Assembly: GCA_965178125.1 (NCBI GenBank)
Contig: OZ237753.1
Location: 992,001-1,056,000, forward strand
DNA from: Bilabrum cf. latius
Lineage: Eukaryota
DNA length: 64,000 nt
Direction: 5' to 3'
The position numbers and the translations under genes were made by a program. Every line of letters begins with the position of its first letter. Position 1 is the first letter of the stretch. Positions 21,593 to 63,119 of the stretch are shown here, one piece after another. A model generated the notes under the pieces. The model saw only the letters and a program-made list of their open reading frames with translations. It was not told the DNA's origin and searched no databases.

Positions 21593-21774
21593 TTTTGCTG
21601 CGTTTTCCAAAACCGATACATGCATTGTACAGTGTTGATTCGACAGACCCTCGAAATCTGGTATAACTTGGGACCCGTTGGGACAACCAGGAGCTGCAGC
21701 TGCAGCAGTAGCCAACACCCCTGTTCATTGTCACAAGGCAAGATTCAATCAGTCAATTATTGTGACTTATTGCG

Positions 21775-24038
21775 ATGCAGGCCACTAAAGCTGCATCGAA
21801 CACCGGCGGAGGCAAGGGTCCTGGGAGCGGCGCGAGTGACCACGAGACTGTCAAAGTTGCCGTCCGTTGCAGAGGTTTGAATGCCAAAGAGCAACAAAGT
21901 GGGGCTGGAGTTGCAATTACAGTACATCCTGTGAGCCTCGACGCAAATTGGAACGCCAGGATCCACGAGATCACCCACTGCCGGGTATCGACGCACATCC
22001 TCGTGCCATTTGCTTTGTTGATTGCTACCATTGCTTTGTTTTTATTCCAACAGGAGACCCAACAAGTGACTGCTGGAAAAAGAGCGTTTTCCTTTGACTG
22101 GGCGTATGGGGAGACTTCCACGCAGCAAGAGGTGTACGAATCATCCGTGGCACCGCTGGTGCAGGCCTTCCTGTCCGGATTGAACGCTTCCATCCTCGCC
22201 TACGGACAAACTGGCGCGGGTAAGACATATACGATGGGAACAACGTTCGATCCGTCCGAAAGCGCCGGTCGCGTGGGCGTGATTCCTAGAGTCCTGCAGG
22301 ACGTGTTTGGCGGAGTGGAAGCCGCTGCTGCGTCGGGCGAGTGGAAGCACAGGCTAGAGGCGTCCTACTTGGAGATCTACAACGAGCAGGTGCGCGATCT
22401 GCTCATGCCAGAGGGTGAGCAGCCCCCCAAGCGCGGGTACCACATGCACCGCGACGATTTCGGCAACTACGACGTGCAGGGGGTGACGCACGTGCCCATG
22501 ACGAGCTTGGAGGACCTCGCCCTGCTACTGGAGAGGGGCGCGCACAGGAGGGCGACGGCCGCCACCAACATGAACGCAACTTCCTCCAGGTCCCATGCCG
22601 TGTTCACGCTGCGGCTAGAGCAGATCCCCACCACCTCTTCGTCGTCGTCATCGGGGGCACTGCCAGCAGCAGGGGCAGCATCGGCTGCGAGCGGCGAAGA
22701 GGAGGTGGATGAGGATGACACGGACAGTGCCGGAAGCTAGGCAGGGGCACCGTCTACGCCGGACGCGAAAGCTCGGCCGGCCCCCGTAGTGTCCTCGGAT
22801 GGTCTGCGCAAGGTGTCTGTGTTCCGGCTGGTGGACCTGGCAGGCAGCGAGCGGGCCAAGAAGACTGGGGCCGAGGGGCAGCGGCTGCGGGAGGCCAACA
22901 ACATCAACCAGAGCCTGAGCACGCTGGGGCGGTGCATCACCGCCCTGGCTTCCAGGGCGAGCCACGTGCCATTCCGAAACAGCAAGCTCACGCAGCTGCT
23001 GAGCAACAGCCTGGGTGGCAACAGCGCCACCCTCATGATTGCATGCGTCAGCCCTGCCGACAGCAGCTTTGAGGAGACTCTCAATACCCTGCGGTACGCA
23101 GATACGGCCTCTTCTATCGAGAACAAGCCGGTGGTGAACGCAGACCCGCACGCTGCATCGGTGGTGCAACTGCGGGGGTGCATCAGCGAGCTGCGGCGCG
23201 AGCTGGCGAGGCTCTACTCCAAGGGGGTGGCCATCGACGGGGACATCCTGCAGCGGTACGACATCTCGGGGGCCAGTGGAGCCTCCCCTAGAAAGCTGGG
23301 GCCGGGGCAAGGGGCGGTGGCGGGATCCTCGCGCTCGCCGGCAGTGCTGGCACGGGTGGCTTGGGGGGACGAGAGGCCAATTACGGGGACGGGGGCGGCG
23401 CGGGCGCTGGGTGCCTCTGCGCTGTCAGCCAGCTCCAGCTCTGCCGCTGCTGCGGGCGGTGCCCCGTTCGGTGTCGGACTGGGTCCCGGCGCGGTCGGTC
23501 ACGAGCTCAGCGCTCTGCGTGACGAGCTCGCTGATGCGCATGCGCAGGCGCACCGCGCGAATGCCGACCTCGCCCAGGCCCGCCGGGAGCTGGCTGACAT
23601 GGGACAGAGGGGGCGCTGGGCCGTCGACCAGGCCAGCCGGTTGCTGGAGGAGAACGCGGGGCTGGAAGCAGCAAGAGACAAGTGGAGGTGGCGGTTTGAG
23701 ACCGTGGCGGCGAGCGTGCACGCACCGACGGAGGCGGAAGACGACCATGCAGAGAGCAAAGAGACCGAGGGAACAGAGAGAAAAGAGGCAGACAGCGCTG
23801 GGGAGGATGAGGGGGAGGATGAGGCCGGTCTCGAGCAGCTGCCCGCCGGGGCCCGGTGGGTGGTGGGGCGGCTCCGGTCGAGCGGTGAGAAGGCCGCCCT
23901 CCAGCTCGTGGGCGAGAAGGACGAGGAGCTGCAGTGCCTGAGGCACCGCTTGCAGTCCATGCGGGCTGGGCTAGAAGGGGTGGCCGCCGCTGGGGCCGAG
24001 GCGGAGGAACAGATCGCCGCCGATGCCCAACCGGGCAG

Positions 24039-24075
<37 letters not shown>

Positions 24076-27000
24076 CCCATGGCGGACGAGGGCGAGGGCG
24101 AGGGCGAGGTAGGTGGTGAAGACATGCGCCAGGCTGCAGCCAGGCCCGTGGCCTCCATTGCGCCTAGGGCCCGGGCTATCCTCGCCGCGGACGATGCGTC
24201 TGCTGCAGAGGCCCGCACGCTGAGGGCACATCTGGATGGCCTGCGCGACGATAAGCCGCAAGGAAGTGGGGAGCTCAGCAGTGGTGACGGCGGCGCGATG
24301 GTGGACGAGCACGCTGCCGCTGCATACTCAGAAGGGGCTGGGGGCGCATCGGTCGAGCTCGACAACGCGATGAGCGCGAGCACCAGCACAGGCGGGCCGG
24401 GCGAGCATGACGTGGCGCACATCAAGAAACAGATGGAGCTGCGGGGCCAGCTCCAGGAGCTGGGCGAGGTGATTGCCGCGAAGCAGCGGCTGCTTGAGGC
24501 CAGCCAGGCCCAGCTGGGGCCTGGCGCTCGGGAGGACGAGTTCCAGCAGCTGTCGGAGGAGTTCAAGGCGGCTATGCAGCAGCGGGAGGAGGAGGTGGCG
24601 GCGCTGGAGGCCAAGTGCAGGGCACTTGCCGAGGAGCTGCGGGCGCACAACGAGGAGGCATCCAAGAGCAAGGCGGACGCGGCACAGGAGCAGCTACTCA
24701 AGAAGAAGGACCAGCAGCTGACCGAGCTGAGGGGCCGGATCCGGTCGCTGCAGGAGGAGATGAAGCAGGCCCAGCGCGAGCACCGCGCCAAGGAGAGGAG
24801 CGTCCAGCGGGTGTCTTTGCTGCAGCGGGAGATCGAGGACCACAAGAGGCACAGGGCGCAGCTGGACAAGAAGATGGGAGAGACAGCCCGCAAGTACCGG
24901 GAGGAGAAACAGCGCATGCACAGGGAGGCGGCACAGGCGGCCAAGCGGGAGCGCCAGCGCGCCCTGGAGCTGAGCAAGGCCCGGGCCGCGCTGCAGCAGA
25001 AGGAGAGGGCGCTTGAGGCCGCGAGGCAGAGGGAGCGAGCGCACAAGAAGCAGGACGACCTTATGAGGAAGAAGAGGGAGCACGTGCAAAGCGCCAGAGC
25101 GGCATCGGCTGCGGCATCGGGAGCGAGGGGAGGCCGCGCATTCGCTGTGCCCAGGTCCGGGTCCAGGGTGGCAGGCGACGGCTTCGCTTTGCCCAGGACC
25201 CGGGGCGGCAGGGAGCGGGGCACGAGCTCCAACGAGCTGCCCGACCTGGCAAGGGATACTAGCGGCCTGGAGGGGGGCGCAGCGGCTCTTGTGGAGGAGT
25301 GTCTGCGAGACGCGGAGGGTCAAGGCCAGGGGCAGGGATACGGGGCCTCCTCGGACGGCGGCCTGGAGGGCATCGACCTGGGGCAGGACGGGGAGAAGGC
25401 GCTGCCGGTGGCTTCCCGCGCCCTGGACTCGCACTCGCAGTCGATCGTGCGGCGGGCTCTCTACTACCGGGCGCAGGCGACCGTGTGGCTGCGGCGGGCC
25501 GAGGCCTGGGTGCAGGAGAGGGCGAGGCTGGCGCGGGAGGTGGACGAGCTGGGCAAGCGGGCCATGCGGGCCATGGAGGGAGACGGTGGGGCAGCGGGTG
25601 TGCCAGATGGGGGGGAAAGTGGCGAGTCGAGCTGCGCGGTGCTGTCGCAGGCGATCGAGGAGCGTAAGCGCAAGATGGTATCATTGACGCTGCAGATCCA
25701 GGACGCGCAGGCCCACCGGCAGCACTTCCACGGGCTGTGCGAAGAGGAGGGGCTCGTGGGAGACGGCTGGATCCGGAGGGTGCTGGCAGAGAACAAGCTG
25801 CCCCGCAGGATCGCACGCACTGTGGGGTCTCGGCTGCTGCGATGGTTCGCCACAATGGTGGTCACCATGAACCTCAGGCTGTTTGCAGCGCTGGGAGAGG
25901 TCGATGGTGCCGACGGGGCTCGCCGTGATGGTGGGGGGGAGCAGGAGCAGGGGCGGGCGGCGTCGGGGCCCACGGCTGCGGCGCGGCTAAAGAGCCGCAT
26001 CACCGAGCTCGAGAGCACTCTGGAAACAGAGCGTGCAGCGGGCAGGCGGGTGCAGTGGAAGCTGCAGCAGCAGCACGCCATGGCGCAGCACGATGACGCG
26101 GAGACCATCGCGGCTCTGCGGCTGTAGCTGAACCAGGCAGAAGCTCAGGCAGTGGGAGCTGGTGAGGGGGCAGAAGGAGGGGAGACTGACGGGGCGAGCG
26201 GTCCCTCTCAGGCTGGCGGCGCCGCCAGCGGTGCCTCAGGGGATGGCGAGGCGGCAGCGCGCAAGGAGGCGGCCCGGCTGCGTCTGGCCTTCGCCCGCAT
26301 GCAGCGGCGCATGGCCAGGGACCTGGAGGCCGCGCGGGAGCGGACAGACCGAGCGGAGGAGGACAGTGGGCGGGTGCAGGAGCTGGAGGCGCACGTGCAG
26401 GAGCTAGAGGAGAGGCTAGCCGAGGCTCGGCGCAGCGCACGCCTCGCCTCTGCCCCTCGCACGCTGAGCAAGATTCCCCGGAGCGCGTCCAGAGCGGAGG
26501 GGGACGAAGAGGAGCGGCAGCAGGGGCGCGGGTTGGCGGGAGGTGCCGTGGCTCGGGCCATCTTTGGGGAAGGGGCTACATCCACCTCGAGCACAGGTGC
26601 AGCGGCTGCAGGGGCCCAGCCGGCCATGAGTGGCAATGGAGGAGGGGAGGCCGATGGCGGCGAGGGCGACGCTGACATGGAAGGCGAGGAGGAGGGGCCA
26701 GAGGGCGAGAGCTTCATCGTCGATGTGGAGGCGGGGACGGAGGGGGGGGCTGCCGCTGCATCATCGATTGCTTCTCTCAGTCCTGGGAGCAAGAGACGAC
26801 GGGAGCAGATCGAGGAGGAGGAAGCCGAGAGCGGTGAGTCTTCCAATGCCACCACGCCCAGGATGCGAGCTATCAGCGGACAGGAGGAGGAAGAGGCGCC
26901 TGGGTCAGGCGGATTGGGGCGCTACATTCGCACCACTTCGGACGATGATGTTGGGCCTGCAGCGTTAGCCAAGCGCGAGGGTGCCAGGCGTGCATCTGTG

Positions 27001-28245
27001 CCTGCCGCAACTCGCATCGGGGGCAACGCAAGCGCCTCCAAATTGTCAGCGGACGGGCCTGCCGAGCCTGCCAGCAAGCTGAGGCGTGTGATGACTGGTC
27101 TCTCGCGCCAGGTGTCCGACCTTTCGGACAAGGCAGGCAGCAAGGCAGAGCCAGCCACGATGCTGGCGAATGGTGGGGTTGAGGAGGACTCGGACGAGGA
27201 CTCGGACGAGGAGGAAGAGGACGAATACGTGGATGCAACGAACGGGGGCTTCGAGCAGGCCAAGGAGCAGCACGAGAAGGAGAAGGAGCTGCACGACGCA
27301 TCTGCAATGGCGGAGCGACTCAGGGGCAAGAGCATCTACGGCATGAAGCGGGCAGCGTTTGGTTCTTCCGTGCGAAGGGATGCGCCCGTCGACCATGCCA
27401 AGCGGGTGGATGAGAGGAGGCGCGTGTTGCGGCAGTCGGTCCGGCAGCGGTCAGGGTCGGCAGAGGAGGGGCGTCTGGGCGAAGGGGCGGCTGCAGCAGG
27501 CGGCGTTGAAGCGACAGGCGAGCAGCATCGGCTTGCGGCGCGCAGGAGGCGACGGCAACGGGCAGGCATGGATCCCAGCAAGCTAGCAGCGGCGCAATCT
27601 GCGGTGGATGCTGCCAGGGGCGTTGCATCGGGGCTTGCCAGCAGGCCACCGAGGGCGGGTGCGGGCGCGCCTCAATCGCAGGGCGCAGCACCTCCCGCCC
27701 CAGTGTCGGCCCAGGTGGACTTGTCTGACATGGTCGGAGAGATTCCTCTGCACCCTGAGGATGAGGTGAGTGCCGATTCCGGGCCCGGGCAGGCAAGCAG
27801 CAGCAGCAGTGCAGCATCCTCGTCGTCATCCTCGTCCCAGGCAGGTGCTCCCCAGGGCAAGGCAAGGTTTAGGGCGCACATGCGGATGGATCCGGAGAAG
27901 AGACGCGCGAAGCGGCGGAAGAGCTCGATGGCTAGGTTGATCGAGACTGCGGATACTCAAGGGGCAGGGTCTGCCGCAGGCGAGAGTTCGGAATTCGCGG
28001 CGCCGGGCACACCCACAGCGAGAAGGAAGCGAGCTGCGGCACTCAGGGCGGCCGATGGGAACCAGGCAGCGGCGTCCGGTAGCAAGCGCAGGGCCCGGTC
28101 GGTCGACACGCCCGGTGCCAGCGAGAAGAAGAAGAGCGCGACTGGTGCAGCAAGTGGTCGGCGCGCATCCGGAGTGGGAATGGCAGGGCACCGGAGGGCC
28201 AGGACGAGAGGGGGTGCAATGCAAAGGGGTGGTCAGAGGGGGTAA
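21775..28245 (+). CDS. kinesin-4 family motor (KIF4/KIF21/KIF27-like) with long coiled coil and disordered tail
   Basis: ATG 21775; probable 123-nt intron 21931-22053 (GTGAG..CAG). P-loop AYGQTGAGKTYTMG, SSRSHAVFT, LVDLAGSER, SPADSSFEETLNTLRYA..IENKPVVNADP. In-frame TAGs at 22738 (motor-domain loop between switch I and II) and 26125; ends TAA 28243-28245. Confidence 0.9.
24043..24075 (+). repeat. (GGCTCG)n hexamer repeat encoding Gly-Ser
   Basis: About five tandem GGCTCG units within the kinesin stalk. Confidence 0.7.
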
Positions 28246-28424
28246 GGGTGCTAGCTGAGGCGCAGTTTGTACCTATTGAAACAATCATCTTACTAATTGT
28301 TCATCCACTCGGTACAGTGTCACGTGAGTATATGGGGAAATCGCACCGTAAAAATAGCCGCTGAGTTCCCGTCCCTGCAAGCTGCACGCGAGGAGACACG
28401 GTCCGCCCCAACAGCCCGTCCCCA

Positions 28425-31400
28425 TTAGGTAGTTGACGTCCCTTGCCCAAACGAGTCCGCCGAGCTACTGGAGTCGAGCCAGTCCACTCGCTGGACCCCG
28501 GAGGTTTGCGGTGGCCCTGTCTGCGTGCCTTCATGCGTGTACGAACCGCCTGCTAGCTGCTGTACAGACGATCGCCCTGTGGCTGTCATGGATGACCCCG
28601 CAGTGCCACTGCTGCTGTCGCTCTCTAGCATACTGCGAGCCAGCCGTTTGGACCGTGGGCTTGCAGATCTTCGGCCCGCACCCGAGGCCTCCTCGTCTGG
28701 CCGGCTCTCTTGGGGTGGACCTCTGTCCAGTGTGCTCTGCTGCAGCTCGGAGCCTTCGGCAAAGCCCATTGGGCGCAGCAATCGAGTCCCCACGGGGGAC
28801 ATCAAGTCGTGACCGTGGTCCTTTGCCCGCAAAACATCAGTCTGAAAAGACTTGGGGGCGACCACATGCCCATCTGCGCCCCCATCGGCCGGTTTCTGAC
28901 TTGCTGTCCCCTAGGACCGATCTGAAGACGACTGCGACAGAGATAAGCCGGACGGACTCGCAGGAACGGAGCCCAAGCCAGCTCGTTGGCCGTGCTTCGC
29001 CAGTCGCTGCACACGCAATGCTACCTCCAGCTGTGCAGCGCTGGACCCCTGAGCCAGCTCGCTAGCGATGGTCCTCCGGCGCACGCTTGAGTTTGCGTCA
29101 AGTGCGCCGAGGGCTGCGGGTGGAGGCGCCGTCGCGAAGTCGTTCTCCAGGTACCCACGACCTGCAGGGCGCCATGTGCCAGCATCTTCCTGGCTTGCGT
29201 GTCGCCTGGCGTCCAGCAAGCTCGCCCTCATCCGCTGCCGGATCTCTGCAGGTGACGAGGCTCGCATCGAGCCGGTGGTACGCTGCCTCTGAGAGAGCAA
29301 GCTCGTAGCTGCGCGATCGCTTTCATTTGGCTGTGCACGGTGCCTCGAGATGTCGTCGTCGCTGACACGGGAAATTTTGTTCCTAGGAAAAGCTGGGGCT
29401 CGGGCTGCGTCTTGGCCCAAGCTGCCCGAGCTGGACTCGGTGGATTCACCGCTCCACGTCGCTGCCACCTGGTGCCCGCGGACCACGGTGACCTCAGAGT
29501 CCTCCAGGTCACGGCGCGCCGCCTGCAGCCACCGCTGTGCCTCTTCCATATCCAGACCACCGCTACCGCGCTGCGGTCGATCCCCCCTTTGCACCCGACT
29601 AGGCCATGCCGACGAGGCCAGAACTCCCCTGGAACCGCCCGGCCTAGATCTTTGCATCACCGAAGCTGAACTCTTCTTTGGTGCGTTGATAGGGTCGTCC
29701 CCATCTGCTCGCAGTATAGGCTAAGTGGACTAGTGAGTAGCTTGCTGGTACCCCGACCCGCTGGCCAAAGCTTCGTCAGCGTGTGTCTGGTCCTGTATCG
29801 GTTCATTTGCCTGCTCACTGGTCCTGGCATGATTTAGGGGATAAAACCGAACTCCGGCTGCACGCTCACGCACGGTAGGGGCCGCCCGGATGGATTGATC
29901 AGCTCCCCACCCCGCCCCACGACGATCGCTAGCAGGCCTGTCCATTGAAGCCGCTGCTGCCGCGATCCGCCTCTTCTACTACTATCGCTTTTGCACGGCA
30001 GCTTGCCACCGATGGAGTGCCCGCTTGGCTACCCCGCGGTAAACACCTGCTACAGCTGCTTCCATTTCGCTTCGACGGGCAGCAAGACTCCTTCCCCAGG
30101 CATCGAAGCTCCTGCGCAACACACTGGCAGCCCAGTGCCTCACAGCGGCCAGCTCAGCACGTCGCAACTGCGCCCTCTCTGCCGCAACAGACCCCCAGGC
30201 AAGCATGCACCGTCTGGCACGCACGCGCCTGCCCACTGTCCTTGCGCGCCACATCTGCACCCACCTTAGCAGGATCGCGCGAGCCCGCCGTCGCAAGATG
30301 TGGCGCGACCTCGCCTCGTCCTCCAAGCGGAGCTGCCGCCGCTACTGCACCGCCTCGACGAATGCCGGAAACGCCTTTTGCCGGAGCCGAACAGCCCAGA
30401 ATGCGATTGCCTTGTTTTGCTGTCGTCTGAGTCTGCGGGCAATCCCAGCGCGTCGCCTCCAGAGACCGAACGCTAAGGCCCGCGCGCATGTCCCTGCACT
30501 TCTGGCTTGGACATCCGTTGCACGCGAGCCATCGAGGACAACAGCGATCCGGCTAAGCATGAAGCGGGCGCCCAGCTGCCACACACGTGCGTTCGGGTCC
30601 TGCCGGGCCTCACCGTTCTCGCACTGCGCCACACTGCCGGACGATGAATCCGAGGATACAGCCGCAACGCGCAAGGCCTTGCTATACCAGGGCTCTGCCG
30701 CGCTGGATGCCTGATGCTCCTCAGCAGCCCACTGCCTCCACGGCTGGATGCAGGATCGAAGCAGGCGGAGGTGGCACAACCGCTCCATGTGCTTCACCCG
30801 GGTCATCGAGGTTGTTCTCTGCTTCCAAGCGAGGAACGCGAGTCTGCCCACTTTCCAACGGTACCTGTCGCCGAGCAGGGCACTCAGGCGGCGTCTGGCG
30901 ATTCGCAGTCGGGCCATCACGGTCCACTTGTGGACGCACCGTCGCAGGGCAGAGCTCTTGGCGTGTGCCCTTGCAAGCGCCGTGCGGGTTCGCGCCTGGC
31001 TGCTCTCGTGGGCGCTGCGAGCCCACTAAGCCATGCACGCCTGAGCGAGCTCTCGCTCTCGGTGTGCAACGCACCTCTTCCGGAGAGCGAGGTAGGTGGT
31101 CTGGCGCCGCCATGAAATCCATGCGCCGCGTTTGGCTCTTGCCGCAAGCCTGCCTTGCAGCACCAGCTCGCGTGAGTGCAGGGTTCGCTTTCGATGCAGC
31201 TCGCCTCGCCACACCTGCATGGACCCTGCCAGCGCGCCTCGCCTCGTCCTGGTAGAGAGAACAGCGGAGGCCCTCGCCCTGTCTAGCACGCGAGCGGATG
31301 CACCATCGGCGAGGGCACGCAACGCACGGGCCTGCAGGCGCATGCGGCCCCGGAACGCCATCTAGAGCGCCAGAGCAGCGGCGGTCTTCTGGTCAGCCGC

Positions 31401-34400
31401 CCCCTTGCTCCACGCTCGCATCGCAAGGCGGAGGGACTCGAGGCGCTGGCGACTTGCGCGTGCACGCACTTCCCGACGAGATCGCACGAACCGCACCATC
31501 GAGGCCCACGTCGCGCGCACCCGAGCCAGTCGGAATGCCCGCCGCACCGATAGGACAACGAGGCGAAACGAAGAGGAACGGCGCGCGGCACGGCCCCAAG
31601 CTCGGAGAGCGCCGTGAGCTGCGCGAGTGGCCCAGAACGAGTCTGCCCGCTACTGCAAGGCTCGAGTCTCGTTCATGCTAAAGACCCGCCGCGACCATCG
31701 ATGAATACCGCGCCTGGCCAGCAGCACTGCTCGCATTCTGGTGGCCACTGCATCTCTGTGCCGCTCCAGTCGAGCATCTGAGGCAGCCACCGCCCAAGCA
31801 TGGAGATGATTCCTCGTACGACGGGCCCTGACGCGCATCTCCAGGACATCAGCTGCACCTTGTGCTCGACGCCCGCGGCGGGCTGCCTCTCCCAGCAAAG
31901 CCAGCGCCTTGCGCAGCACGGTGCGGTGGTGCCTGCGTGAAGCAGCCCGCAGCGCAGCACGCCTGGCTTGCGATTCTACCCGGCAGCGAAGCAGAGACAG
32001 CAGCCCGCGGCGCAAACGGAGTCGAACCCGAAGCGAGTCGGCCACCCGCTCCAGCGCAGTGCACCTGGCCTGTTCTCGCGCAGCTTGCAGCCACCCGTGC
32101 AGCGCTGACGAGGCCAGTCGCCTGGCCCTGAACACGATGGCGGCAGCCTCCTGCCTGGCTTCGTGAAGCACTTGCTCAGCACTGGCTGACCACCGCTGGA
32201 TAGCAGCTCGCAGCACGACTCGATGCATGGCCGCGCATATGCACCTCAGCGCCGCCCTTCGCTCCCTCTGCATCCTGGTGCCTGCCCTCAGCGCCGCCAG
32301 CGCACCGGCGAGGGCAGATCGCTCCCGCTGCGACGAGATTCGCGCGATGCCGGCCCGGACCGCCGCAGTATTTCTCCAAGCCTGTCTCCACCTACGCAGC
32401 GTGTGCCGTGCCCTCCTCCTGACCGCTGCTCGCGCTACTGCTCTGGCAGCCTCACGCACCTCCCGCTGTCTGGCCGCGCCTTCAGCCCAGCCCTTGATGG
32501 CCCACCGCCCCAGTCGCAGTGCAGCAAGCGCCCTCGCAGAGGCGCAATTAACCCGGCGGCGGGCGTGTTCGCTGGCCCATTGCCTCCACGCAGACACGCC
32601 CCTGTGAAGGCCGCGCTTGCGGCGAAGCAGATCCGCGGCGTTGGCCCGCAGCCGGTTCATCCTGCGGCTCCTGGCAAAATTAGCCAACTGGCTCAGTCCT
32701 TGCTTCGCTTGCCTGCTTACATGGTGCTGTCTGGCTGTTTGCAATGCATGGCGCTGCAACAAGACATATCGTCCTGCCATGTGCATCCTGCGGAGAGCGT
32801 CGGATGCGAACCGCAATCGGCGCCTCGTCTCCAGCATCGCAGCGCACGATCGACATCGAGCCTCACGGTTGGCGGCGGCTTGCCATGCCCGCAGAATGGC
32901 CCGGCAATGGTACGATTCGTCGCAGTGCCGCAGCTTGGCCGTTGCTTCGACACGTGCTTGCTCCCTGCGGCCTGCCTCCTGTTTCCACGCTCGCAGGGCA
33001 CGTCTCGAGAGAGACACCCGCGCGAAATCAACTGCGGCACCGGCTTGCGCCCGCTCTAGTAGACGTGCTTCGGTTGCTTCACGCCACGCATACCAAGCCT
33101 TGCGTCTGCTCCTCATATCCACCGACTATCGAGCTCGTTGCTCCACCACCAGGAGCACGCGACGCCTCTCGAGAGCACTGCCCCACCTAGCAAGGGTCTC
33201 TCGCTGCAACCGACGACATGCCCGTGCCCGCACCACGCTAGCACAGGCACTGAGCTGCTTGGAGCGGACCGTAAATCGGCGCCACATCCGCCAGCTCCGA
33301 TGGCGCAGGCGCATCCGTCTCCATGCAGCAGCGGCCTGCAGTGCACGTGCAAGGCGAAGCCGGCTGTGGAACTGCTCCCGCCACGCTGTCCAGGCCGTGT
33401 CTTGCAGCGCCTGCCTCCGCAAGCGGGACACATGCATGCGGCTTATCCTCAGCTGTGCCTGCTTTCTGCTCGATGCATGCCAGTGCTGCATCGATTGCCT
33501 GACTCTCCGGGCCATAGACTCGACCCGCAGCTGCCGTTGCAGTCTGCACCACGTGGTGATGCGGCGCCAGCCAAGCTCCATGGCCCGCCTTCTTGCGAAT
33601 TCCTCCGCTCGAATACACAGGGTGCGTCGCATCCACCCATACCTGCGGATTCGTTCGGTCGCGAGGTGCATCTGAAGGCGTTGCGCCCCTCGTGTGAGCA
33701 GCGCAAAGCCCTATCGAAGCTTGCGCTAGCTGGCGATGTACCGCCACCATTGGTGAACAACCCGTCTCTGCCGGACTTTGTGCAAAAAGCAAGTCAAGCG
33801 CCCGGCCATTAATTCCGCTTGGCCGACTTGCTTGGCTCGGAGGGCTATAGCGCCGAAAGCGCGGCGGAGCAGAGGTCGAGTGAGCCCGCAGTGCACCAAT
33901 GCGCGGGCTCGCCTCATCTTCTGGGCTGCCCTGGACCATTGCTGAGCGCATGCCTTCCCAAGGCGGAGGACATGGAGTGTCCTGAGCCCCCGCACCTGCT
34001 GCTCCTGTCGAACCACATGCCTCCATGGAACCAGGATGGTTCGTTTTCGTCTTGCTCTCAGGCGGGCAGACAGCTCCAGCCCGAGCTCTTTCAGGCTCCT
34101 GGCTCGCCTCACAGAAGCCTCGAGCCCTGTCCATCCCAGCTCAAGCAGGCGCCGCCGCCTGAAAGATGTAGCAGCACGATGCGGCCTCTTAGTTTCGGCA
34201 AGAACTCGTGCTACGTGGTGCCAACGGCGTAGTACGACCCTTCCGAAAGCCTTCGCAGTCGACATCTGACCCACGTGATCACGCCAGGACAACAAGTACG
34301 ACCTGACTCTCTCTCGCTAGAATCGAGCATGCAGAGCCTGCTGCACCAATTCCATCACCGGCCCCTACACCTAAGGCACTGCAAAAGATACTCCTCGAAC

Positions 34401-36590
34401 TGCTCCCACAGGCATCATCCCGTCCGACCTGCCAGCCGTGCCTGCTCCCCCGCCCACTCCCACAGGCATCATCCCGTCCGACCTGCCAGCCGTGCCTGCT
34501 CCCCCGCCCACTCCCACAGGCATCACCCCGTCCGACCTGCCAGCCGTGCCTGCTCCCCCGCCCACTCCCACAGGCATCATCCCGTCCGACCTGCCAGCCG
34601 TGCCTGCTCCCCCGCCCACTCCCACAGGCATCATCCCGTCCGACCTGCCAGCCGTGCCTGCTCCCCCGCCCACTCCCACAGGCATCATCCCGTCCGACCT
34701 GCCAGCCGTGCCTGCTCCCCCGCCCACTCCCACAGGCATCATCCCGTCCGACCTGCCAGCCGTGCCTGCTCCCCCGCCCACTCCCACAGGCATCACCCCG
34801 TCCGACCTGCCAGCCGTGCCTGCTCCCCCGCCTACTCCCACAGGCATCATCCCGTCCGACCTGCCAGCCGTGCCTGCTCCCCCGCCCACTCCCACAGGCA
34901 TCATCCCGTCCGACCTGCCAGCCGTGCCTGCTCCCCCGCCCACTCCCACAGGCATCATCCCGTCCGACCTGCCAGCCGTGCCTGCTCCCCCGCCCACTCC
35001 CACAGGCATCATCCCGTCCGACCTGCCAGCCGTGCCTGCTCCCCCGCCCACTCCCACAGGCATCACCCCGTCCGACCTGCCAGCCGTGCCTGCTCCCCCG
35101 CCCACTCCCACAGGCATCATCCCGTCCGACCTGCCAGCCGTGCCTGCTCCCCCGCCCACTCCCACAGGCATCATCCCGTCCGACCTGCCAGCCGTGCCTG
35201 CTCCCCCGCCCACTCCCACAGGCATCACCCCGTCCGACCTGCCAGCCGTGCCTGCTCCCCCGCCCACTCCCACAGGCATCATCCCGTCCGACCTGCCAGC
35301 CGTGCCTGCTCCCCCGCCCACTCCCACAGGCATCATCCCGTCCGACCTGCCAGCCGTGCCTGCTCCCCCGCCCACTCCCACAGGCATCATCCCGTCCGAC
35401 CTGCCAGCCGTGCCTGCTCCCCCGCCCACTCCCACAGGCATCATCCCGTCCGACCTGCCAGCCGTGCCTGCTCCCCCGCCCACTCCCACAGGCATCATCC
35501 CGTCCGACCTGCCAGCCGTGCCTGCTCCCCCGCCCACTCCCACAGGCATCATCCCGTCCGACCTGCCAGCCGTGCCTGCTCCCCCGCCCACTCCCACAGG
35601 CATCATCCCGTCCGACCTGCCAGCCGTGCCTGCTCCCCCGCCCACTCCCACAGGCATCACCCCGTCCGACCTGCCAGCCGTGCCTGCTCCCCCGCCCACT
35701 CCCACAGGCATCATCCCGTCCGACCTGCCAGCCGTGCCTGCTCCCCCGCCCACTCCCACAGGCATCATCCCGTCCGACCTGCCAGCCGTGCCTGCTCCCC
35801 CGCCCACTCCCACAGGCATCATCCCGTCCGACCTGCCAGCCGTGCCTGCTCCCCCGCCCACTCCCACAGGCATCACCCCGTCCGACCTGCCAGCCGTGCC
35901 TGCTCCCCCGCCCACTCCCACAGGCATCATCCCGTCCGACCTGCCAGCCGTGCCTGCTCCCCCGCCCACTCCCACAGGCATCATCCCGTCCGACCTGCCA
36001 GCCGTGCCTGCTCCCCCGCCCACTCCCACAGGCATCATCCCGTCCGACCTGCCAGCCATGCTTGCACCTGCACCTTCAGGTGCCCCCACGCTGAAGTCTA
36101 CGTGCTGTATAGTATCAACTGCGGATCGTTCCATTCTGGTATTCGGATTTGATACGGGGATTGCCCTGGTGGGCTGATTTTGGTCACTCAACTGCAACGA
36201 CCGAAGGACATCGTGGCCCGTGTCTGCAACTAGCCTGGAGAGGTGCGCCTCAGGAGTATGCCCAAGCCCAACAGGTGTAGAATACACTTGAGTCCGCTGT
36301 GCAGTATCTTGATCGTAGCCGAGTGCCTGATATGCTGAGTCTCGAAGCGTTTCAGAGCGGCTGGCGTCGTACTTGCTTATGTGTTGAACCCCTGCACAGC
36401 TCCAGATGCCATGCAGGCTAATCGATGTTGTCATATTCTGCTTCGGAGATCTAGGAGAAGGGTGTTTGCTTGGGATTGTCAGCGCAGTGCGAAGTGCCAC
36501 TCTTGCCTGAATTGAGTCCCGTTGCCATCCTCTGTCTATGTCATCAATCAAATCTCCAAGTATTCCACCACTGCAAGGCGTGCCTTCCAT
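28425..36590 (-). CDS. SFI1-like centrin-binding repeat protein (~2700 aa) with an N-terminal 18-aa tandem repeat
   Basis: Eleven ORF-track fragments share one frame, joined by 16 TAGs (34371, 34365, 34317, 33726, 33711, 33126, 31650, 31362, 31026, 30342, 29982, 29979, 29976, 29730, 29721, 28911); TAA 28425-28427. Dozens of Arg/Ala-rich repeats of the form A..(F/H)....L.RRA(F/L)..W, typical of SFI1 repeats. First in-frame ATG at 36590; the 5' end is uncertain. Confidence 0.75.
34403..36057. repeat. 54-bp minisatellite, ~30.6 near-identical copies
   Basis: Unit ctcccacaggcatcatcccgtccgacctgccagccgtgcctgctcccccgccca. Variant catcaCccc in copies 3, 8, 13, 16, 24 and 28, plus one C>T near 34833. 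Encodes GRSDG(M/V)MPVGVGGGAGTA in the minus-strand gene frame. Confidence 0.97.
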
Positions 36591-37023
36591 AGCGCTGAAT
36601 GCACTCAGATTATTTGTATCATATTTACGCCCGTGCACCCGACGAATTTTACTCGATTCGAATCAGCAACTGCTTGAACGTGCATGTGATGAGTGCACCC
36701 GTTGGTCACAAAGTACTCCCTTCAAATGCACAAAATCAGATTGCGTCCCAAAGGCAACTCGGTTAATCCACAGGCGTACAGCTCATTTTGTGTAAATAGT
36801 AACGTATACTACAGCTAACTTAGTTTAGATAATCTGTATGAATGATTCAGGTTCCAATGGGAGGGGTGATGTGTCGCGAAGCATGCTAGAAACTGTGTTT
36901 GATCGTGAGATTGCTTCCGTCTGCGCAGCATTTGTAGATCCCGATACATTGGTACTGGCATCATTTTGTTGATATTTCTGTTTTGTAGGAGTTGGGGCGG
37001 AAGGAATATGCACGTTTCTAACC

Positions 37024-40000
37024 ATGAGCGATGTTATTCAATGCAACGGGGTAGCCAAGGCGATTTCGTCAAAGATTCGTGCAGTTGCTCCGGCATGGCA
37101 ACACGGCGCACTGGACTCTTTGCGGACTCCAGGGGATTGTACAGAATTCCGTAGATGTAGCGCTTCGTTGCAACGTGATTTTGGCTTGGACTGTTCGGCT
37201 GCGTGGGCTTAGTCACGGCGAGTAATCGCGATTCGGCTGTGCTTGCACATCTAGTTGCAAAAGATTCGAAACAAGAGGCAACTAGTAGATGCACAAGAGA
37301 TGGAAAGTACACTAGCTGGTGATCATAGTTTGCTACTGGTTTTCAAAGGTATGGTCTCTTGGATTACGGCAGCTGTTGATTTCGTCGGACGCGAAGCCTC
37401 AAAGTGGCTAGACCTGGTGTGCGGCGACTTGCATCCCTGCCCCTAGAATGGCGCTCTGATGCTGATAGTAATCTTGCTGGAGCATGAAGCGATGGTGCTC
37501 GAGTCCGATGTGCAAACAGCGGCCCACGAAAGCCCCGATTCTGGGGGCTCAGCATCACGAGCAACAATTCAGAGCAGTACCGCAGACCCGATTCGAAGGG
37601 AACAGACGTGGAGGCTAGCAAGCCTCCTCGACAAAGAGTCAGGTGAGTGGACTAGTGTGTCGTGCAGCGGACCCGTGCCTCGATTACTACCGCTTGCCAG
37701 TGGTGATGGGCACGGTGCACCGGTTGGCAGCGCCGGAGGATCCTCTGCAGCTGGGAGGAAGCCGCCGCCGGTGTCGTAGCCCCAGTGGCTGAGACAGACC
37801 TCCTTCTACATGCTAGCATCTCGACTGCTGCGACTGCAATCCCCTGGCAAGATGAAGGAGCAGCTGTAGATGCCTGTCCCCGTGCACATCCCCGAGCTGC
37901 ACCTGGCAGTGGCCCTCGGGCAGGAGCGGCTGGTGGCTCTCAGGCGATTCCAGCTGTCCTGCTGGGCGAGGCACAAGGCTATTTTGCAAAGTCAAGGGAA
38001 GCCGCTACGCGCGAATAGACGAGGATTTGCGGCCTCGTACAGTCACACGCTGCACAGACTTGTGGCGCTCGATGCCAGCATCCCACTGCGGGCAGAGGTA
38101 CCAAGCTCACATTTGCTGCTGGACGCGCGGGCAGCAGAGCGGAAACGAGTCGCCGCCATGGAGAGCCAGCGGAACGATCACTGTAGGTCGTAGTCCAAAG
38201 AAACTCGCGTGTTACTTGCAGAAGGATCCTTCCTTCACACACACGGGTACTTGAGGCGCTGCGCCAGCCAAGAATCGAATCGCTCGAACGCGCCGCTGCG
38301 TGCTCTGACGGTGGACGAGGCACACGCCCGGTGGCACACGTTCGACTTGGAGCGGCATCATGACGCCAGGTACGGGAACCCATGGGACGATTCTGGCGCG
38401 AGTGTGGCCCTGCACCGCGGAGTATTGGGAGTCGAGCCTTGCTGTTGCTGCGACTCGGAGAGCTAGATCTAGCTATGCTGTAGACCAGATGGCTGCACCG
38501 CGTGGGGGTGCAATTGGAGCTGTGCAAGGCTTCCCATGTGTGCGTGCGAGTCATTTGTATCCATGGTCTTCTACTTGCTAGCCAGCACAATCATCACGTT
38601 CGGACTGGCAGCTGCCATGCTCATCGGGTCCGTGCAAGCCTGCCTACATGTGGATCTCCGGCGGCTGGCGGTGCTGCTCGATGTGCAGTCCGTGCTGGAC
38701 TTGCCCGTGGAAGCAGGGGGGACGCAGGCAAATGAGACTGCCGCAGTGGCCCAAGTCATTGAAAACTGCGGCGCGTTTGGGGGCTCTCCGCCCATTGCCA
38801 CTTCGCTCCGGAGAGCGCACGAGTTCCAGGCATGGCCCTGGGTGCTGGCTCCGTCCGTTGGAGTGCTGCTGCTCGCAGCTGCCGCACTCGGAGAGATCTT
38901 CAATTGCTGCGCCTCCTCATATCCAATGTGTGCCCACCTTTCGAGTTTATCGCCGTTTGCCGTATCCCGACAGCCCCGGTGGCTCGGCTTGCTAGCTCAC
39001 CGAGCAGGCTGGCTCATCGCGCTTGGGCCTCTGATGGCTGCTATCGCTATCATTGCAGTTTGGGTGGACGTCAGCAATGCCATCGCAGCTGATGGCAGTG
39101 CGTATGGTCAGCTCGGAGCACCAGCAGCTGGATGGGTGTTTGGACTGTGCGGCGTGTTCCAGATCTCAGTGTACCTGTGGTACCGCGCTTGGAGACCTCT
39201 CCACCAGTTGGACCAGTCCACGTGGGCTGAGGTCGGGTTGGACAAGACTACTTACGTTGACATGTGCCTGCTCTTGTTTCCGGTGCTTGTTGCGATCTTG
39301 GTGGGCACACAGAGCCCGGTCAATCCACTCGTGGCCTCGCTTCCTGTCGTTGTGCACCTTGGCTGGTACGTTTGGCTCAATCGAGAGACGTTTGTCAGGG
39401 CATACAACCTGCAGCTGCGTCTGCATGAGATTGGCTTGCTCGTAATCAGCTTGATCCTAACCATACTAGTAGTTAGCTCGCTGGCATCGGCGGATGTGGC
39501 ATCGTCGCCAGAGCAGCCGGTGTCACCTGTAGTGGTGGAGGCAGGCCGCAGCGACTTGCGACAGGCCACCTTTTTGGGAGTTGCAATTGCCTTGCTGATC
39601 TTCTATCCCCTCCCAGTGCTGGTAGAGTGCCTCCGTCAGTGCAGAATTGCAAAGGAGGACAACGAGGCAATGACCATGCTGCTCGCATCGGTGCCACCGC
39701 ATCCCAGGCCCAGCCTCTCTCGAGCTGACTTTAGGCTGGTTGAGGAGGTCTCTACCCCGGACATGGCTTGGCACCGCCTCCAGCACCGCTTGCGGCTGAC
39801 ACCATCGAGGCTGCGAGGCGCCTTGTCTCGTGCCATCGCCGACCTAAGCGTACAGGTGAGGGAACAGCAGGGCAGCGGAGCTGAGGCCGTGCGGTGGGAG
39901 CGCAGGATTGCATCCGGCTTGGAGAGCCAGGAGCGAGCAGCAGGGGCGTCTGCATTTGGGACAAATGCCAATACCAGGGGCACTTCTGGGGCCTCTACTC

Positions 40001-40611
40001 CCAGAGAGCAGGGCTTGTGTGTGGACTGCAGCGACCAACTCAAGGTGGAGAGCCGCCTGCACCTGTGGCTGCCTCTGGTTCGGTGGATTGCGAAGGGGCT
40101 CACAAGAGGGCACTTCCAGGCACAGGCAGATGAGCGCTGCCAGGCTGCTGGAGACACAGACAATCTTGATGCTGCAGACGGGTCCCTAGACGTGAATGGC
40201 GATTCACATGGGTCTGAAAAGGGTGCTAGCATGCCAGATGATGCCAGTGCCACCGCAGCGGGTGCTGCTGCGGCTGCTGCTATGGAGCCGCCGATGGGCA
40301 CTAGGACTGCGGAGGTCCAGCTCGAGCCCATTGGTATAGATATGAACAGTGACAGCAGGGTTGCAATTTGGGGTGATTGTGGTCTGCAGCAGCAAGTAAA
40401 TGCTCTGGTTTCGGAGCTCGGGGGCAAGGGGGGTGCCGCCGACACGTTTGCCGGCGGATGCGGCGTTGCAGCTGATGGAACTGGTGCCGAGACTGTGGTC
40501 CTGGACCCGCTTCCGATTCGTGGGCTTCTTGTTCCTAATCTGTCTGTCAGGGACTGGTTTCTGCAACACGCACGTTCGTGCGCTCGCGAAAGCGAGGCAA
40601 TGTCGGCTTGA
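37024..40611 (+). CDS. orphan multi-pass membrane protein (~1195 aa)
   Basis: Seven ORF fragments in one frame joined by TAGs at 37210, 37252, 37444, 37777, 37867, 38191, 38464 and 38470; TGA 40609. About 8 hydrophobic segments between 38560 and 39630. Start uncertain (ATG 37024 or 37300). Confidence 0.65.
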
Positions 40612-40680
40612 CAAAAATGAGCATGAAGATAATTAAGTGTCCAGATGCCGTAGATCACAAAACTCAAAGCTTGAGTATCA

Positions 40681-43600
40681 ATGGTGTCCCAGATGCCTAC
40701 CGTATACTCAATGTCCATCGATATGCCAGAGTTGTGCACTGATGATCCATTCGTGGCCTATGCTGCCCAAGAAAGCACCGAGTGGCATACTCTGTTGCGA
40801 CGCCAGGTGCAGCCCTGGCGAGGTGCCCTGCCTCAATCTCGGAGCAATTCTGCTACATATTCAGATTTGCATAATTTGGATATCCTTGCAAGCTGCCAAG
40901 ATCGATACTTGTAGGAAGGCTAGAAGGTGGGGCGAACCTAGGGTGCTAGAGGAGGCAGTAGGTTTGTGCCCGACCTTCTGGCTGATTCTGCGATACAGGA
41001 CCCAGACACGCTAGACTCAATGGTAGATGTTGTTGAATCGAAAGAGCATGTCATTCGCGAGGACGTGAGCCGCTCAGTGGGCGCGGAGCTTCGAGAGGTG
41101 TTTTCAAGCTCTCAAGTGGACGGCAACAGCCTGCGCTCCATCAGGGATAGCCTGCAGCAGTCTATAGGACAAATTATTTAGCGAGCATGTAATCCTATGG
41201 ATATAGTCGGCGGAAATTTAGGTGAAGCAAGCGATCCAACAGCTAGGATTGCTAGCTCCCAACGACGGCCGCAACGGCGTAGCAGACGTTTAGCACGAAT
41301 AGCCATCGCTGCGGCGACTCGGTCATTGTTGCTAGATCCGCAGGGGCCTGCTGGGATGCCGCATGTGACAGACGCCTTGCTCGCCGCAGTTGACCTGGTG
41401 CATGCTGCCAAAGCCGATCCGGGGTCCACGGGCTTCGCATGCCGGCTCATGGTCGCGAAGAACCGCGCCTCTTCGCTCCCTCGCGTGCCGAGAGCCGCAA
41501 GCGCACTGACCGACCACGCGATCACAGTAGTTTGGACGCAGGTGCTCTGCCGTCGCTTCGAGGAAGACAGGCTGCGGGGCCAACTGGCGGGAGCGGGCGC
41601 CGCCGGCTCCCTCATCGTGGCAGCCAGGGCGGGCGATCAGCCAGGGAACAAAAACCCGTGGGTGGCCCGACTCCTGCGGCACCCTTCATGGAGGGCCAGT
41701 CTGCTGCAGGCTGCCGGATTGCCCCCCAAGAACCTGTTCCTGGACGCCGTGCGCAGCGGCTGCCTGCGGGAAGCACTGCACCAGTTGCGCGCACCCGGGG
41801 AAGGGGAAGGAGACCTATGGGGTGGGCGGCTGGCCTCTGCCGTGGAGGACATGGCTGCAGTGGCCAGGACTAGCCGGACCCCACTGCCCGTGCAGGCCGC
41901 CCTTCAGCTGGCCTCCTCCCGGGCTGCAGATGCAGTGCAGGCGCACCCTGTCCTGGCTGCGGGTGCCCTCGCTGCCTCTGCTGCTGAGTTGCCGGCGTCG
42001 CTGCTGGCCGCCGCAATGCACGCAGGCCTTGCATCTCGGCTATTGTCCGTTAGCTTCAGACCAATGGGTGCGCAGCGGGCCCTCCGAGTAGCGGACGAAG
42101 CGAGCGCTGTGGCCGTGCTGCGTGGAGCTGGTTCTCTCAAGCCGCTGGTGTCCGCGTCAGATGCTGGCGCGCCCGGCGCGCAAGCAGGCGCTGCATAGGC
42201 GCAGATAGATGCAGGTTGGCCGGCAAGTGAGACAGCGGGGAGGGCAGGGGCCTAGCCGGCGCGCGGTGCCCTTGCCAGAGGCCAGGCCGCCTCGGCTGCC
42301 TCTGCGGGCGCGCGGCAGTCCCATTTTTATGGAGGGGTGGCACAGCGAGGAGCCGTCCGGCATCAGGGCTCAGAGCAGGCTGCGGCGAGTCGGCACGCGA
42401 GAGAGGCGGCGGTGTGGGCCGATCGAGTGCTGGGTGGCACCGACCATGGCACAGGCACAGGCACAGCCTCTGCTCCACCCAGCTCTGCCCTGCCACCGGC
42501 CGGCAGCGCTGCACGTGCGGCACAGGTGCCGGGTGCTCACGCGGGCGGTGCCCTGGCTTGCAGGCTCCAAGCTGCCAAGCTGAGCGCCAGTCTCCTGGCC
42601 CTCGCGGTGCAAGATGTCGGAGCTGCCGGCGGGGGCGTTGTGCTGCCTCGTGGCCTGGCCTGGTCTCTCGCATTCGCGGCGAGCTCGGCCTCGCAGGCCA
42701 TGGACGTTGGGGCCGACTATGCAGCCAAGATTGTGTCAGCCGCTCGGCGGTTTGTGAGTGGCAGTGACAGCCAGAGCGGTGGTTCCAGCAACAGTGGGGA
42801 GTCTTCGTCGTCGGGTGCCGCATGGCATGTAGGGCTGTCGGGTGCAGGCATTGCTGCGGGCATCTTGACAAACAGCCGAGGGGCTCCTGAGACCGTGACA
42901 GCTGCTGCGGCTGGGCTTGGGGCCCCTGTGGATGCAACCGCTGGTGTCAGCAAACGGGAAGATCCGCCCGTACGGCGAGAGGGCGAGGACGGACCGGGTC
43001 GCAGTGGACGACTGGCGCCTGCACCAGGCGGTATTGAGCTCGTGCTGGAAGGAGAGCACGCTCTGGCTCTGCTGCCGCCTGACAGCGGCTCGCTCCCGGT
43101 ATCAGAGCCGAAAATCCGCTCGTAGGGCAACCCTATGCTGCTTGCTGCCGCGAGACCGAGCGAGGGTTAGTAGACTGGCGCATCTGGCAGCAACACAAGC
43201 ATCAGCTCGTCGGCGTGGCTCCGAGGAGTAGTTGCCATCATGGGTGCGCTCTCCGTCGCGCGCCACCCCACTGAAGGGGCTGCTGCGGATGCTGCGTCTG
43301 TTTCGCAGCCCAAGGCAAAGGTGTTGCTGATGGCCTGCTGCAGGTGTCTTCGGCTGCACACTCTCCGCCAGGTGCTGCGTCTGGTGCTCGTGCGACCTGA
43401 GCAAGCTGGTGCGAGCGACCGCACGTTGGCCGCAACCGCGCTCAGTATCGCATCCCACGCTCCTCTGCTGCCTGGCTCTGGCGACCGCGAGTTTGCTGCT
43501 GCGGTGGAATCAACGGCAGTGGACGCTGTGGCTCGCCGGTGCCACCGCAGCCTGCGGTCTGTGCAGAGAGCGCATGAGCTGTGCCAGTCGGCACACTCTC

Positions 43601-44745
43601 TTGCAGGCCGCCCCGACGGCGCGACTACTGCACCGGCGAAAAGCAGCAGTAGTAGCAGCGGTAGCGTGTGGGCGGGCGCTGCCTCCTCCGCTGTCTCCGT
43701 GGACAAGAAGGTGGAGACCCGGGCAGAGGCAAAGGCGGAGACTGCGCTGCTGGAGAGTGCAGCCACCTCTGCTGTGGATGCGAGCGTGGTGTTTGGCCTC
43801 TTGCGGCGCCACCTAAGGGCCCGCCGAGACCAGGCGAGGGTACCTGAAAGCGTGGCGCTGGGAGCAGCGCGCGTGTGTTGCCGTGTGGCAGCCAGGGCGG
43901 CTGCAGAGCGGCCGGGTCTGGCGCTCGAGGCCCTGGCCGTGCTGGCGTAGGCAGCGTGCGCGGCGGGAGGGCCCTGGGCGAGAGAGAGCGGGGGAGCTGG
44001 GGACGCTGAGGACGGCGAGGACGAGGACGGGGCCGGGCATGCGTGGCTCGGGAGCGGGGACGATGCACGTGATGAGGCAGACTACCTGGCGCTCATGGAG
44101 AGCAGGAAAAAGAGCAGCGGCGGCGCGCGGGGCAGCGGCGAGTAGAGCACCGGTGCACTGGCTGGCGTGTCCGGGGGCGCGCTCACCGAGTTCCGCAAGT
44201 GGCTGGCAGTGCCCCTGGAGCAGCTCCTGGGCAGCCACACGCGGCACGGGGGCGGGGCCGTGCTGGGTGCAGTGAGCTGGGTGAGGGGCATGGTGCGCGC
44301 GCAGGGCATTGAGGCAGGTGTGGCCAGGGTGTTGGTGGGGGCTGTGCTGCGGGGCATCGCCCCCACACCGCACAAGCCGCCCCTCTTGCGCGCCGTGCTG
44401 GACCTCGTGGCAGACGGGGCCATGGCCAGACCCAGCCGGCTGCCTCTGGGGGACTTGCCTGCCATGAGGGTCGGCGCTGGGATGCTGGAGAGCGCTTCCA
44501 AGCAGCTGCTCAGGCTGTGCAAGCGGTAGATGCAGAAGCAGAAGGAGGCAGCGGCCGGTGCCGCGGCCCAGGCGCCCGTGGCCCCCGCCTTGCAAGGGCC
44601 GCCCAAGGCGGTCCTGCTGGCGGCGCGCAGGGCCAACAAGGCACTCGCAGACGCGCTGCACGCCCGGGGCCAAATACCGGAGCTGAGCGTGGCTGTCACG
44701 AAGGCCCAGAGCACGATTGAGGAAATTGATAAGCTGTGCAATTGA
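40681..44745 (+). CDS. orphan Ala/Leu-rich, probably helical protein (~1354 aa)
   Basis: One frame from ATG 40681 to TGA 44743 with 12 TAGs (40912, 40921, 40939, 41179, 42196, 42253, 43123, 43168, 43171, 43948, 44143, 44527) and no internal TAA/TGA. No family recognised. Confidence 0.65.

Positions 44746-57276: not shown

Positions 57277-63119
<5,843 letters not shown>

Follow-up and report, generated by a model that had tools for sequence, protein, structure and literature searches.

The present analysis concerns one 64-kilobase (kb) stretch of DNA (64,000 nucleotides, nt) from Bilabrum cf. latius, assembly GCA_965178125.1, contig OZ237753.1, positions 992,001-1,056,000 (hereafter the window), in which a kinesin-4-like gene and an SFI1-like gene converge on a short gap and both end in TAA. 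We consider it likely that these genes are written in a decoupled nuclear code, in which UAG means glutamine (Gln) and UAA and UGA are stops. The parts of this reading differ in strength. UAA is kept out of coding frames in two lineages, which is strongly supported; the meaning Gln for UAG, as judged from alignments, is well supported; and UAA is probably a working terminator at gene ends, a conclusion that rests on two ends, on the implausible read-through that would otherwise be needed, and on hints from base composition and contigs. The original prediction had proposed that UAG is decoupled from UAA in this DNA, and it is supported by the exclusion of TAA from about 19,000 codons, by the agreement of a metagenomic relative (locus L001), by the alignment of TAG with Gln and by TAA at 2 of 13 gene ends. 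The elements at the centre of the argument are the following.

21766-28245, plus strand: kinesin-4-like gene, a stop-to-stop open reading frame (ORF) of 2,159 amino acids with 2 TAG, 0 TAA and 0 TGA in frame
28243-28245, plus strand: TAA ending the kinesin-4-like ORF, read from the sequence
28246-28424, no strand: convergent-gene gap (3′ untranslated regions, UTRs, plus intergenic DNA), 179 base pairs (bp), guanine-plus-cytosine (GC) content 0.54
28425-28427, minus strand: TAA ending the SFI1-like ORF (TTA on the plus strand), read from the sequence
28425-36662, minus strand: SFI1-like gene, a stop-to-stop ORF of 2,745 amino acids with 16 TAG, 0 TAA and 0 TGA in frame

The kinesin and SFI1-like frames are long ORFs only when TAG is taken as sense. 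Their arrangement is as first described, with a plus-strand kinesin and a minus-strand SFI1-like gene both closing on TAA and with a gap of about 180 bp that is AT-richer beside the kinesin: GC amounts to 0.45 over the 85 nt next to the kinesin and to 0.62 over the remaining 94 nt. Stop codons are present in all six frames of the gap.

The main count covered ten long ORFs with 16,854 codons, and an extended count added smaller exons to reach about 19,005 codons. In frame, the ten long ORFs contain 72 TAG, 0 TAA and 0 TGA, whereas their +1 and +2 frames contain 96 and 76 TAG, 27 and 32 TAA, and 282 and 227 TGA, respectively. Thus, TAG is not avoided in frame, and chance falls far short of explaining why TAA is missing there. 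The extended set gave 84 TAG, 0 TAA and 0 internal TGA (one TGA falling into this count is a terminal stop, included through the segment bounds), and four more TAGs in the ORF piece 44939-45694 lie outside the counts. An earlier estimate of about 92 internal TAGs was hence about right, and the earlier figure of zero internal TAAs holds over all of the roughly 19,005 codons. The TAGs are spread over 16 of the 19 coding segments. Because the ORFs were bounded by TAA and TGA, the in-frame zeros are partly built in, which weighs against our reading, and the zero for TAA gains meaning only from the lengths of the ORFs and from comparison with the off-frames. With respect to length, frames of 3,229, 2,745, 2,159 and 1,931 codons run without TAA, and off frame one TAA is met in about every 560 codons. 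Coding DNA contains 2.7 TAA/TTA sites per kb and the DNA outside it 13.0.

A coupling test gave the same picture. CAA makes up 17.7% of CAA plus CAG in the window, from which about 15.5 in-frame TAAs would be expected if UAA were read together with UAG, and the probability of seeing none is about 4e-8. In the relative L001 the CAA fraction is 0.32, which leads to an expectation of 15.7 TAAs; none is seen (P 1.5e-7).

The assignment of UAG to Gln was approached through the largest subunit of RNA polymerase III (RPC1), which was aligned with 120 homologues so that all seven of its TAG columns could be inspected. The features used here, together with a conserved gene that lacks TAG, are these.

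57324-63119, plus strand: RPC1 gene, 7 in-frame TAG, TGA end
57477-57479, plus strand: in-frame TAG of RPC1, column with Gln as its commonest residue (52 of 120 homologues)
61314-61316, plus strand: in-frame TAG of RPC1, column with Gln in 112 of 120 homologues
51598-54891, minus strand: glycine dehydrogenase (P-protein) gene, 0 TAG, TGA end after a tail unaligned to homologues

The remaining five RPC1 columns are uninformative, three being variable (E, S and D commonest) and two mostly gaps. In the RNA-recognition-motif (RRM) protein of the window, TAG sits inside GPPPQ-like repeats. Altogether, TAG accounts for about 8% of Gln codons in the window. Its use is uneven among genes: it is least used in the most conserved ones (0 in the 1,097 codons of glycine dehydrogenase; 1 in the 701 codons of the cGMP-dependent kinase at 3-2105, minus strand) and most used in poorly conserved ones (8 in the 373 codons of the RRM protein; 12 in the 1,356 codons of ORF 40675-44745). 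This skew is consistent with TAG being a minor Gln codon.

When metagenome contigs were scanned with the kinesin as query, three loci came up. L001 (10.3 kb, 59% GC) carries a kinesin orthologue that is 55% identical overall and 77% identical over the motor region, and also an orthologue (62%) of the neighbouring 3,229-codon gene; L002 is nearly identical to L001 and comes from a different sample. Over 3,331 codons of L001 (kinesin plus the big ORF) there are 33 TAG, 0 TAA and 0 TGA in frame, and the two off-frames contain 10 and 25 TAA. When the TAGs of L001 were aligned with the window, giving 39 alignment positions (a few of the 33 TAGs enter twice, because the big ORF has a second, weak alignment), 13 of the 39 stood opposite a Q of the window, and 10 of these 13 had at least 7 of 11 neighbouring residues identical. 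The other positions comprise 6 gaps and otherwise scattered residues, among which G is the next commonest (5). The third locus, L003 (48% identity), has 0 TAG in 774 + 367 codons, the 774 codons being those of its kinesin orthologue at L003:2494-4815. None of the three loci extends to the 3′ ends of the orthologues, and further scans of genome contigs and viral contigs found no relative.

We turn to the gene ends, where the question is whether UAA terminates. Thirteen ends were placed, 11 with TGA and 2 (kinesin and SFI1-like) with TAA; the tally would become 10 TGA and 2 TAA if the TGA end at 40611 is an intron boundary. Past the kinesin TAA, the same frame meets TAG at +2 codons, TAA at +16 codons and its first TGA at 188 codons, where it already runs antisense to the convergent gene. 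GC falls at once past this TAA, from 0.60-0.72 to 0.42-0.47, and likewise past most TGA ends. Codon usage was scored in 25-codon windows over the 75 codons past each stop and expressed as a percentile among in-gene windows. The percentiles were 5.9, 23 and 3.9 past the kinesin TAA and 13.8, 3.4 and 1.1 past the SFI1-like TAA, and those past the 11 TGA ends lie in the same range. The word (G)TATTG was also seen in 5 of the 13 post-stop regions (150 nt each), including one 27 nt past the kinesin TAA (28272-28278); this enrichment is marginal and may reflect only AT-richer UTRs, since 1,024 five-letter words were considered. A scan of the gap for bacterial-type promoters and terminators returned one promoter-like match and no terminators, which is meaningless for a eukaryote.

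Public sequencing data add contig evidence. Seven runs from three studies contain the stretch 26500-30500, none of them recorded as RNA, and four were compared, all as contigs. Contigs of the DNA runs X1 (24119-34000) and X5 (27917-28963) bridge 28197-28306 with 0 differing letters. Another run, X6, looks like RNA in its behaviour, because its sole contig over the 5′ region of the kinesin gene skips the following piece.

21931-22053, plus strand: kinesin intron, 123 nt, GT..AG, in frame; the X6 contig joins 21930 to 22054

This piece has a pyrimidine-rich 3′ end and interrupts the motor domain; with its GT..AG borders and its absence from the X6 contig, it looks like a spliced intron. Since it is in frame and contains neither TAA nor TGA, an ORF scan passes straight through it, and only the spliced X6 contig and the interrupted motor domain revealed it. 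The X6 contigs end at 28196 and restart at 28307, leaving 28197-28306 uncovered, and these two contigs fully account for the binned X6 depth of 8.35. This lack of coverage suggests only weakly that the two transcripts finish in the gap between the genes; X6 contigs break inside genes too. On the SFI1-like side the contig extends 118 nt past the TAA, to 28307. If 28307 lies near the end of the SFI1-like transcript, the 3′ UTR would measure at least 118 nt with the TAA as stop, versus about 13 nt with the downstream TGA. As a separate observation, the runs containing this stretch are filed under three different organism labels, and the organism may occur in other samples as a companion that went unrecognised.

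Several points weigh against UAA as a terminator or against the decoupled code as a whole. TAA stands at only 2 of 13 ends, both after non-conserved tails, so that a caveat attached to the original prediction remains in force. A word-index search for homologues of the C-terminal 704 amino acids of the kinesin gave 0 matches, and a full HMMER search gave P0139 (93% identical, query residues 290-553) and P0140 (57%, query residues 348-470); in neither search does a homologue extend to the kinesin C-terminus. The kinesin TAA is part of GGTAAGG, a sequence similar to a 5′ splice site, which makes a terminal intron possible. At the SFI1-like end, GC is still 0.72 over the first 40 nt beyond the TAA, and read-through is hard to exclude because the nearest in-frame TGA (about 28320-28322) lies just 34 codons on; taken alone, the SFI1-like TAA is weaker evidence than the kinesin end. 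A cruder 50-codon score is flat across both TAAs (kinesin 0.06 to 0.08; SFI1-like -0.01 to -0.04). Contigs cannot show poly(A) sites, the automatic label of X6 is 'RNA? (probably DNA)', and its kinesin contig stops 47 nt ahead of the kinesin TAA. With respect to UAG, only 1 of 11 window TAGs stands opposite a Q in L001, most of the others lying in poorly aligned stretches.

The points on the gene ends can be put together into a different reading, in which TGA is the sole terminator, TAA is avoided or unassigned, and the two TAA ends are errors of the gene models, namely a terminal intron in the kinesin gene, starting at the GTAAGG around its TAA, or read-through in the SFI1-like gene to the TGA 34 codons on. 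It draws on the small number of TAA ends and their non-conserved tails, on the GGTAAGG context, and on the close TGA downstream of the SFI1-like TAA together with the high GC of the first 40 nt past that TAA. We hold it to be improbable, though the best placed of the alternatives. Introns are few in this DNA, with one confirmed and a handful more implied by frame changes between ORF pieces of the GAS8-like, MAP-kinase-like and RRM genes; no joint near 28242 occurs in any run compared; and there is scarcely room for another kinesin exon ahead of the convergent gene. On the SFI1-like side, termination at the downstream TGA would leave the very short UTR calculated above, provided that 28307 is near the transcript end. 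Finally, a stop codon is expected to behave just as TAA does here, with two copies exactly at ORF ends and not one among some 19,000 codons.

UAG could also have a dual meaning, being sense within genes and a stop at some ends, which is compatible with UAA as a stop. The code would then depend on context and be no clean reassignment. Context-dependent stop codons that are also read as sense are known from Condylostoma and Blastocrithidia. A scan that takes TAG as sense is blind to TAG terminators, and some proteins of the window have long non-conserved C-terminal tails (about 220 amino acids in RPC1 and about 180 in the GAS8-like protein) that may not be real. However, the RPC1 and GAS8 tails are free of TAG, the glycine dehydrogenase ORF reaches its TGA without any TAG (its C-terminus being unaligned to homologues), and TAG is not depleted in frame. 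A dual UAG therefore appears distinctly unlikely. The more extreme code of the Condylostoma/Blastocrithidia type, in which all stops are also sense, was rejected, as internal TGA and TAA both number 0 in about 19,005 codons.

A coupled code of the table 6 type, with both UAA and UAG as Gln and TGA as the sole stop, would explain the TGA at 11 of 13 ends. TAA would then be merely rare in a GC-rich genome, and it is indeed the rarest of the three triplets in the window (244 TAA, 712 TAG and 1,331 TGA on both strands together). The coupling tests nevertheless call for about 15 TAAs each in the window and in the less GC-rich L001, where none is found, and the two off-frames of these ORFs do contain TAA, 27 and 32 times. 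Moreover, the kinesin would need a 188-codon extension running antisense into its neighbour and past the TAA at +16. We give this code very little credence. Least of all, in-frame TAGs could be assembly errors or pseudogenes with no change of code, for which we found no supporting evidence and which is practically dismissed by 84 TAGs in 16 of 19 segments against 0 TAA or internal TGA, by contigs of DNA runs X1 and X5 that agree with the window to the letter over the compared pieces, by the recurrence of the pattern in L001 and L002, and by the TAGs at Gln columns.

According to the decoupled reading, UGA would be the main terminator and UAA a minor one, UAG would be a minor Gln codon, and the TAAs at 28243 and 28425 would be the true ends of the convergent genes. 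Following the argument in a section of PMC5304391, a tRNA-Gln with anticodon CUA would be required, because the tRNA must pair with UAG and not with UAA. Such a tRNA-Gln(CUA), as proposed after PMC5304391, may decode UAG here, and it probably arose from tRNA-Gln(CUG) by a single anticodon change. Release factor eRF1 would, by the same analogy, have lost efficient recognition of UAG and retained that of UAA and UGA; the stop-recognition motifs of eRF1 named in that section are GTS, NIKS and YxCxxxF, and positions 32 and 69 (human numbering) are treated there as well (PMC5304391). A tRNA scan found 0 tRNA genes in the 64-kb window or in L001-L003, an Rfam scan of the window and related loci gave 0 matches, and the eRF1 gene is not within the window.

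The RPC1 protein also helps to place the organism. Its top two matches are a metagenome protein and a EukProt transcript, the best matches carrying names are oomycetes and labyrinthulomycetes, and no match exceeds about 59% identity. In a FastTree tree of this single gene, made from 37 rows hand-picked from the 120 matches, the window groups with stramenopiles (29 rows, support 100) and, among these, with Blastocystis and labyrinthulomycetes in a set of 12 rows (support 97); the metagenome protein P0003, at 59% identity, is its sister. The organism is provisionally taken as a stramenopile of a Bigyra-like clade, provisional because one gene and a fast tree method were used. P0003 is a full-length prediction of 1,768 residues that was called whole under a standard-type code. 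Since L003 and P0003 are without in-frame TAG, the reassignment seems confined to a subclade, as far as few codons allow, and it would be possible to date the change inside the clade.

The genomic setting is in line with the earlier description of a GC-rich genome: the window has about 64% GC, with long genes tightly packed on both strands, about 57 kb of coding DNA and few introns. Beside RPC1 and glycine dehydrogenase, its genes code for a DENN protein, the cGMP-dependent protein kinase, and GAS8-like, MAP-kinase-like and RRM proteins. The kinesin-4 label given originally fits, as the ORF matches the Pfam Kinesin motor (E 5.7e-100) and a KIF21A-like domain. The SFI1-like ORF matched 0 Pfam families. 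Its tryptophans are mostly spaced by about 30-36 residues within repeats rich in Arg, Ala and Leu, a pattern that presumably resembles Sfi1 repeats, and for this reason the SFI1-like label is plausible.

Towards its N-terminus, at about 34430-36100 on the minus strand, the SFI1-like ORF consists of a long near-perfect tandem array with all six frames open; judged by eye from the translation, an 18-residue unit rich in Gly and Ala, AGRSDGMMPVGVGGGAGT, is present there in about 30 copies. On the plus strand, at 40609-40674, two long ORFs (36973-40611 and 40675-44745) that share a frame are separated by 63 AT-rich nt. These contain a duplicated GTGTCC(C)AGATGCC and five in-frame stops (4 TGA and 1 TAA); the two ORFs may be one intron-bearing gene and not two. 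In the GAS8-like gene, a putative tail of about 180 Gly/Ala/Arg-rich residues without TAG (3512-4100, minus strand) follows the conserved GAS domain before the TGA, and it may instead hide an intron.

Other eukaryotes are already known to read UAG as Gln and to stop at UAA and UGA. Passages of PMC5304391 report this pattern for Iotanema spirale (Metamonada, Fornicata). As in the window, UAG alone was reassigned to Gln there and UAA was kept, and a tRNA-Gln(CUA) together with an eRF1 weakened for UAG was inferred (PMC5304391, same passages). Different from the window, where TGA stands at 11 of 13 ends, UAA is described there as the primary stop of Iotanema (PMC5304391). Moreover, Iotanema belongs to an unrelated supergroup and is represented by a transcriptome, whereas the window organism is known from genomic DNA plus a metagenomic relative.

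Among ciliates, UAG alone is given as Gln for two phyllopharyngean lineages and for Protocruzia tuzeti in the relevant part of PMC11687900. Their codon table is as in the window, with TAG as Q and TAA and TGA as stops, and ciliates change their code often. The ciliate code corresponds to what we take to be the pattern of NCBI table 15. In other cases UAG has gone to a different amino acid with UAA kept as stop, namely to Leu in the rhizarian exLh (an entry in PMC5304391) and to Ser in the green alga Scotinosphaera, and UAG as Leu is listed for some ciliates too (both from a portion of PMC11687900). UAG is decoupled in exLh and Scotinosphaera as in the window, but it is Gln that fits the window columns. 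The list of UAG-only changes given with the original prediction agrees with this portion of PMC11687900, which adds Scotinosphaera. Coupled codes with UAR (UAA and UAG) as Gln are recorded in the same portion for many ciliates, Hexamita, ulvophytes, Streblomastix and Amoeboaphelidium (PMC11687900). They share the change of UAG to Gln; unlike them, the window and L001 have no TAA where about 15 would be expected in each. Giant-virus genomes with TAG as Gln and TAA and TGA as stops appear in a part of the GVMAGs V2 study (PMC13524828). The table is the same, and the window is cellular, as it has genes for RPC1 and for a kinesin together with a spliceosomal intron.

For stramenopiles, we found no report of a nuclear code change in the full texts searched. 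The passages of the Cafeteria genome paper that bear on the code mention a non-standard one only for the mitochondrion (PMC6972860). Hence, what would be new is not the code pattern but its lineage, a Bigyra-like stramenopile. We lean towards regarding this as the first nuclear code change in a stramenopile, of independent origin and common to at least two divergent Bigyra-like members, the organisms of the window and of L001.

On the practical side, the organism's long genes will mostly be broken up by standard gene callers. If the reading of a first stramenopile case is true, such free-living flagellates would be candidate hosts for giant viruses that read TAG as Gln. UAG and UAA almost always shift together, and the exceptions show that the translation machinery can distinguish them; UAG-only exceptions have been put forward as models for UAG-only recoding in eukaryotes (in a passage of PMC5304391). 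A new case in a stramenopile comes with genomic DNA in hand and with a relative sharing the code. One could compare eRF1 and tRNA-Gln directly in closely related lineages that do and do not carry the change, and test whether GC pressure, under which UAA is rare and UGA dominant, eases the capture of UAG.

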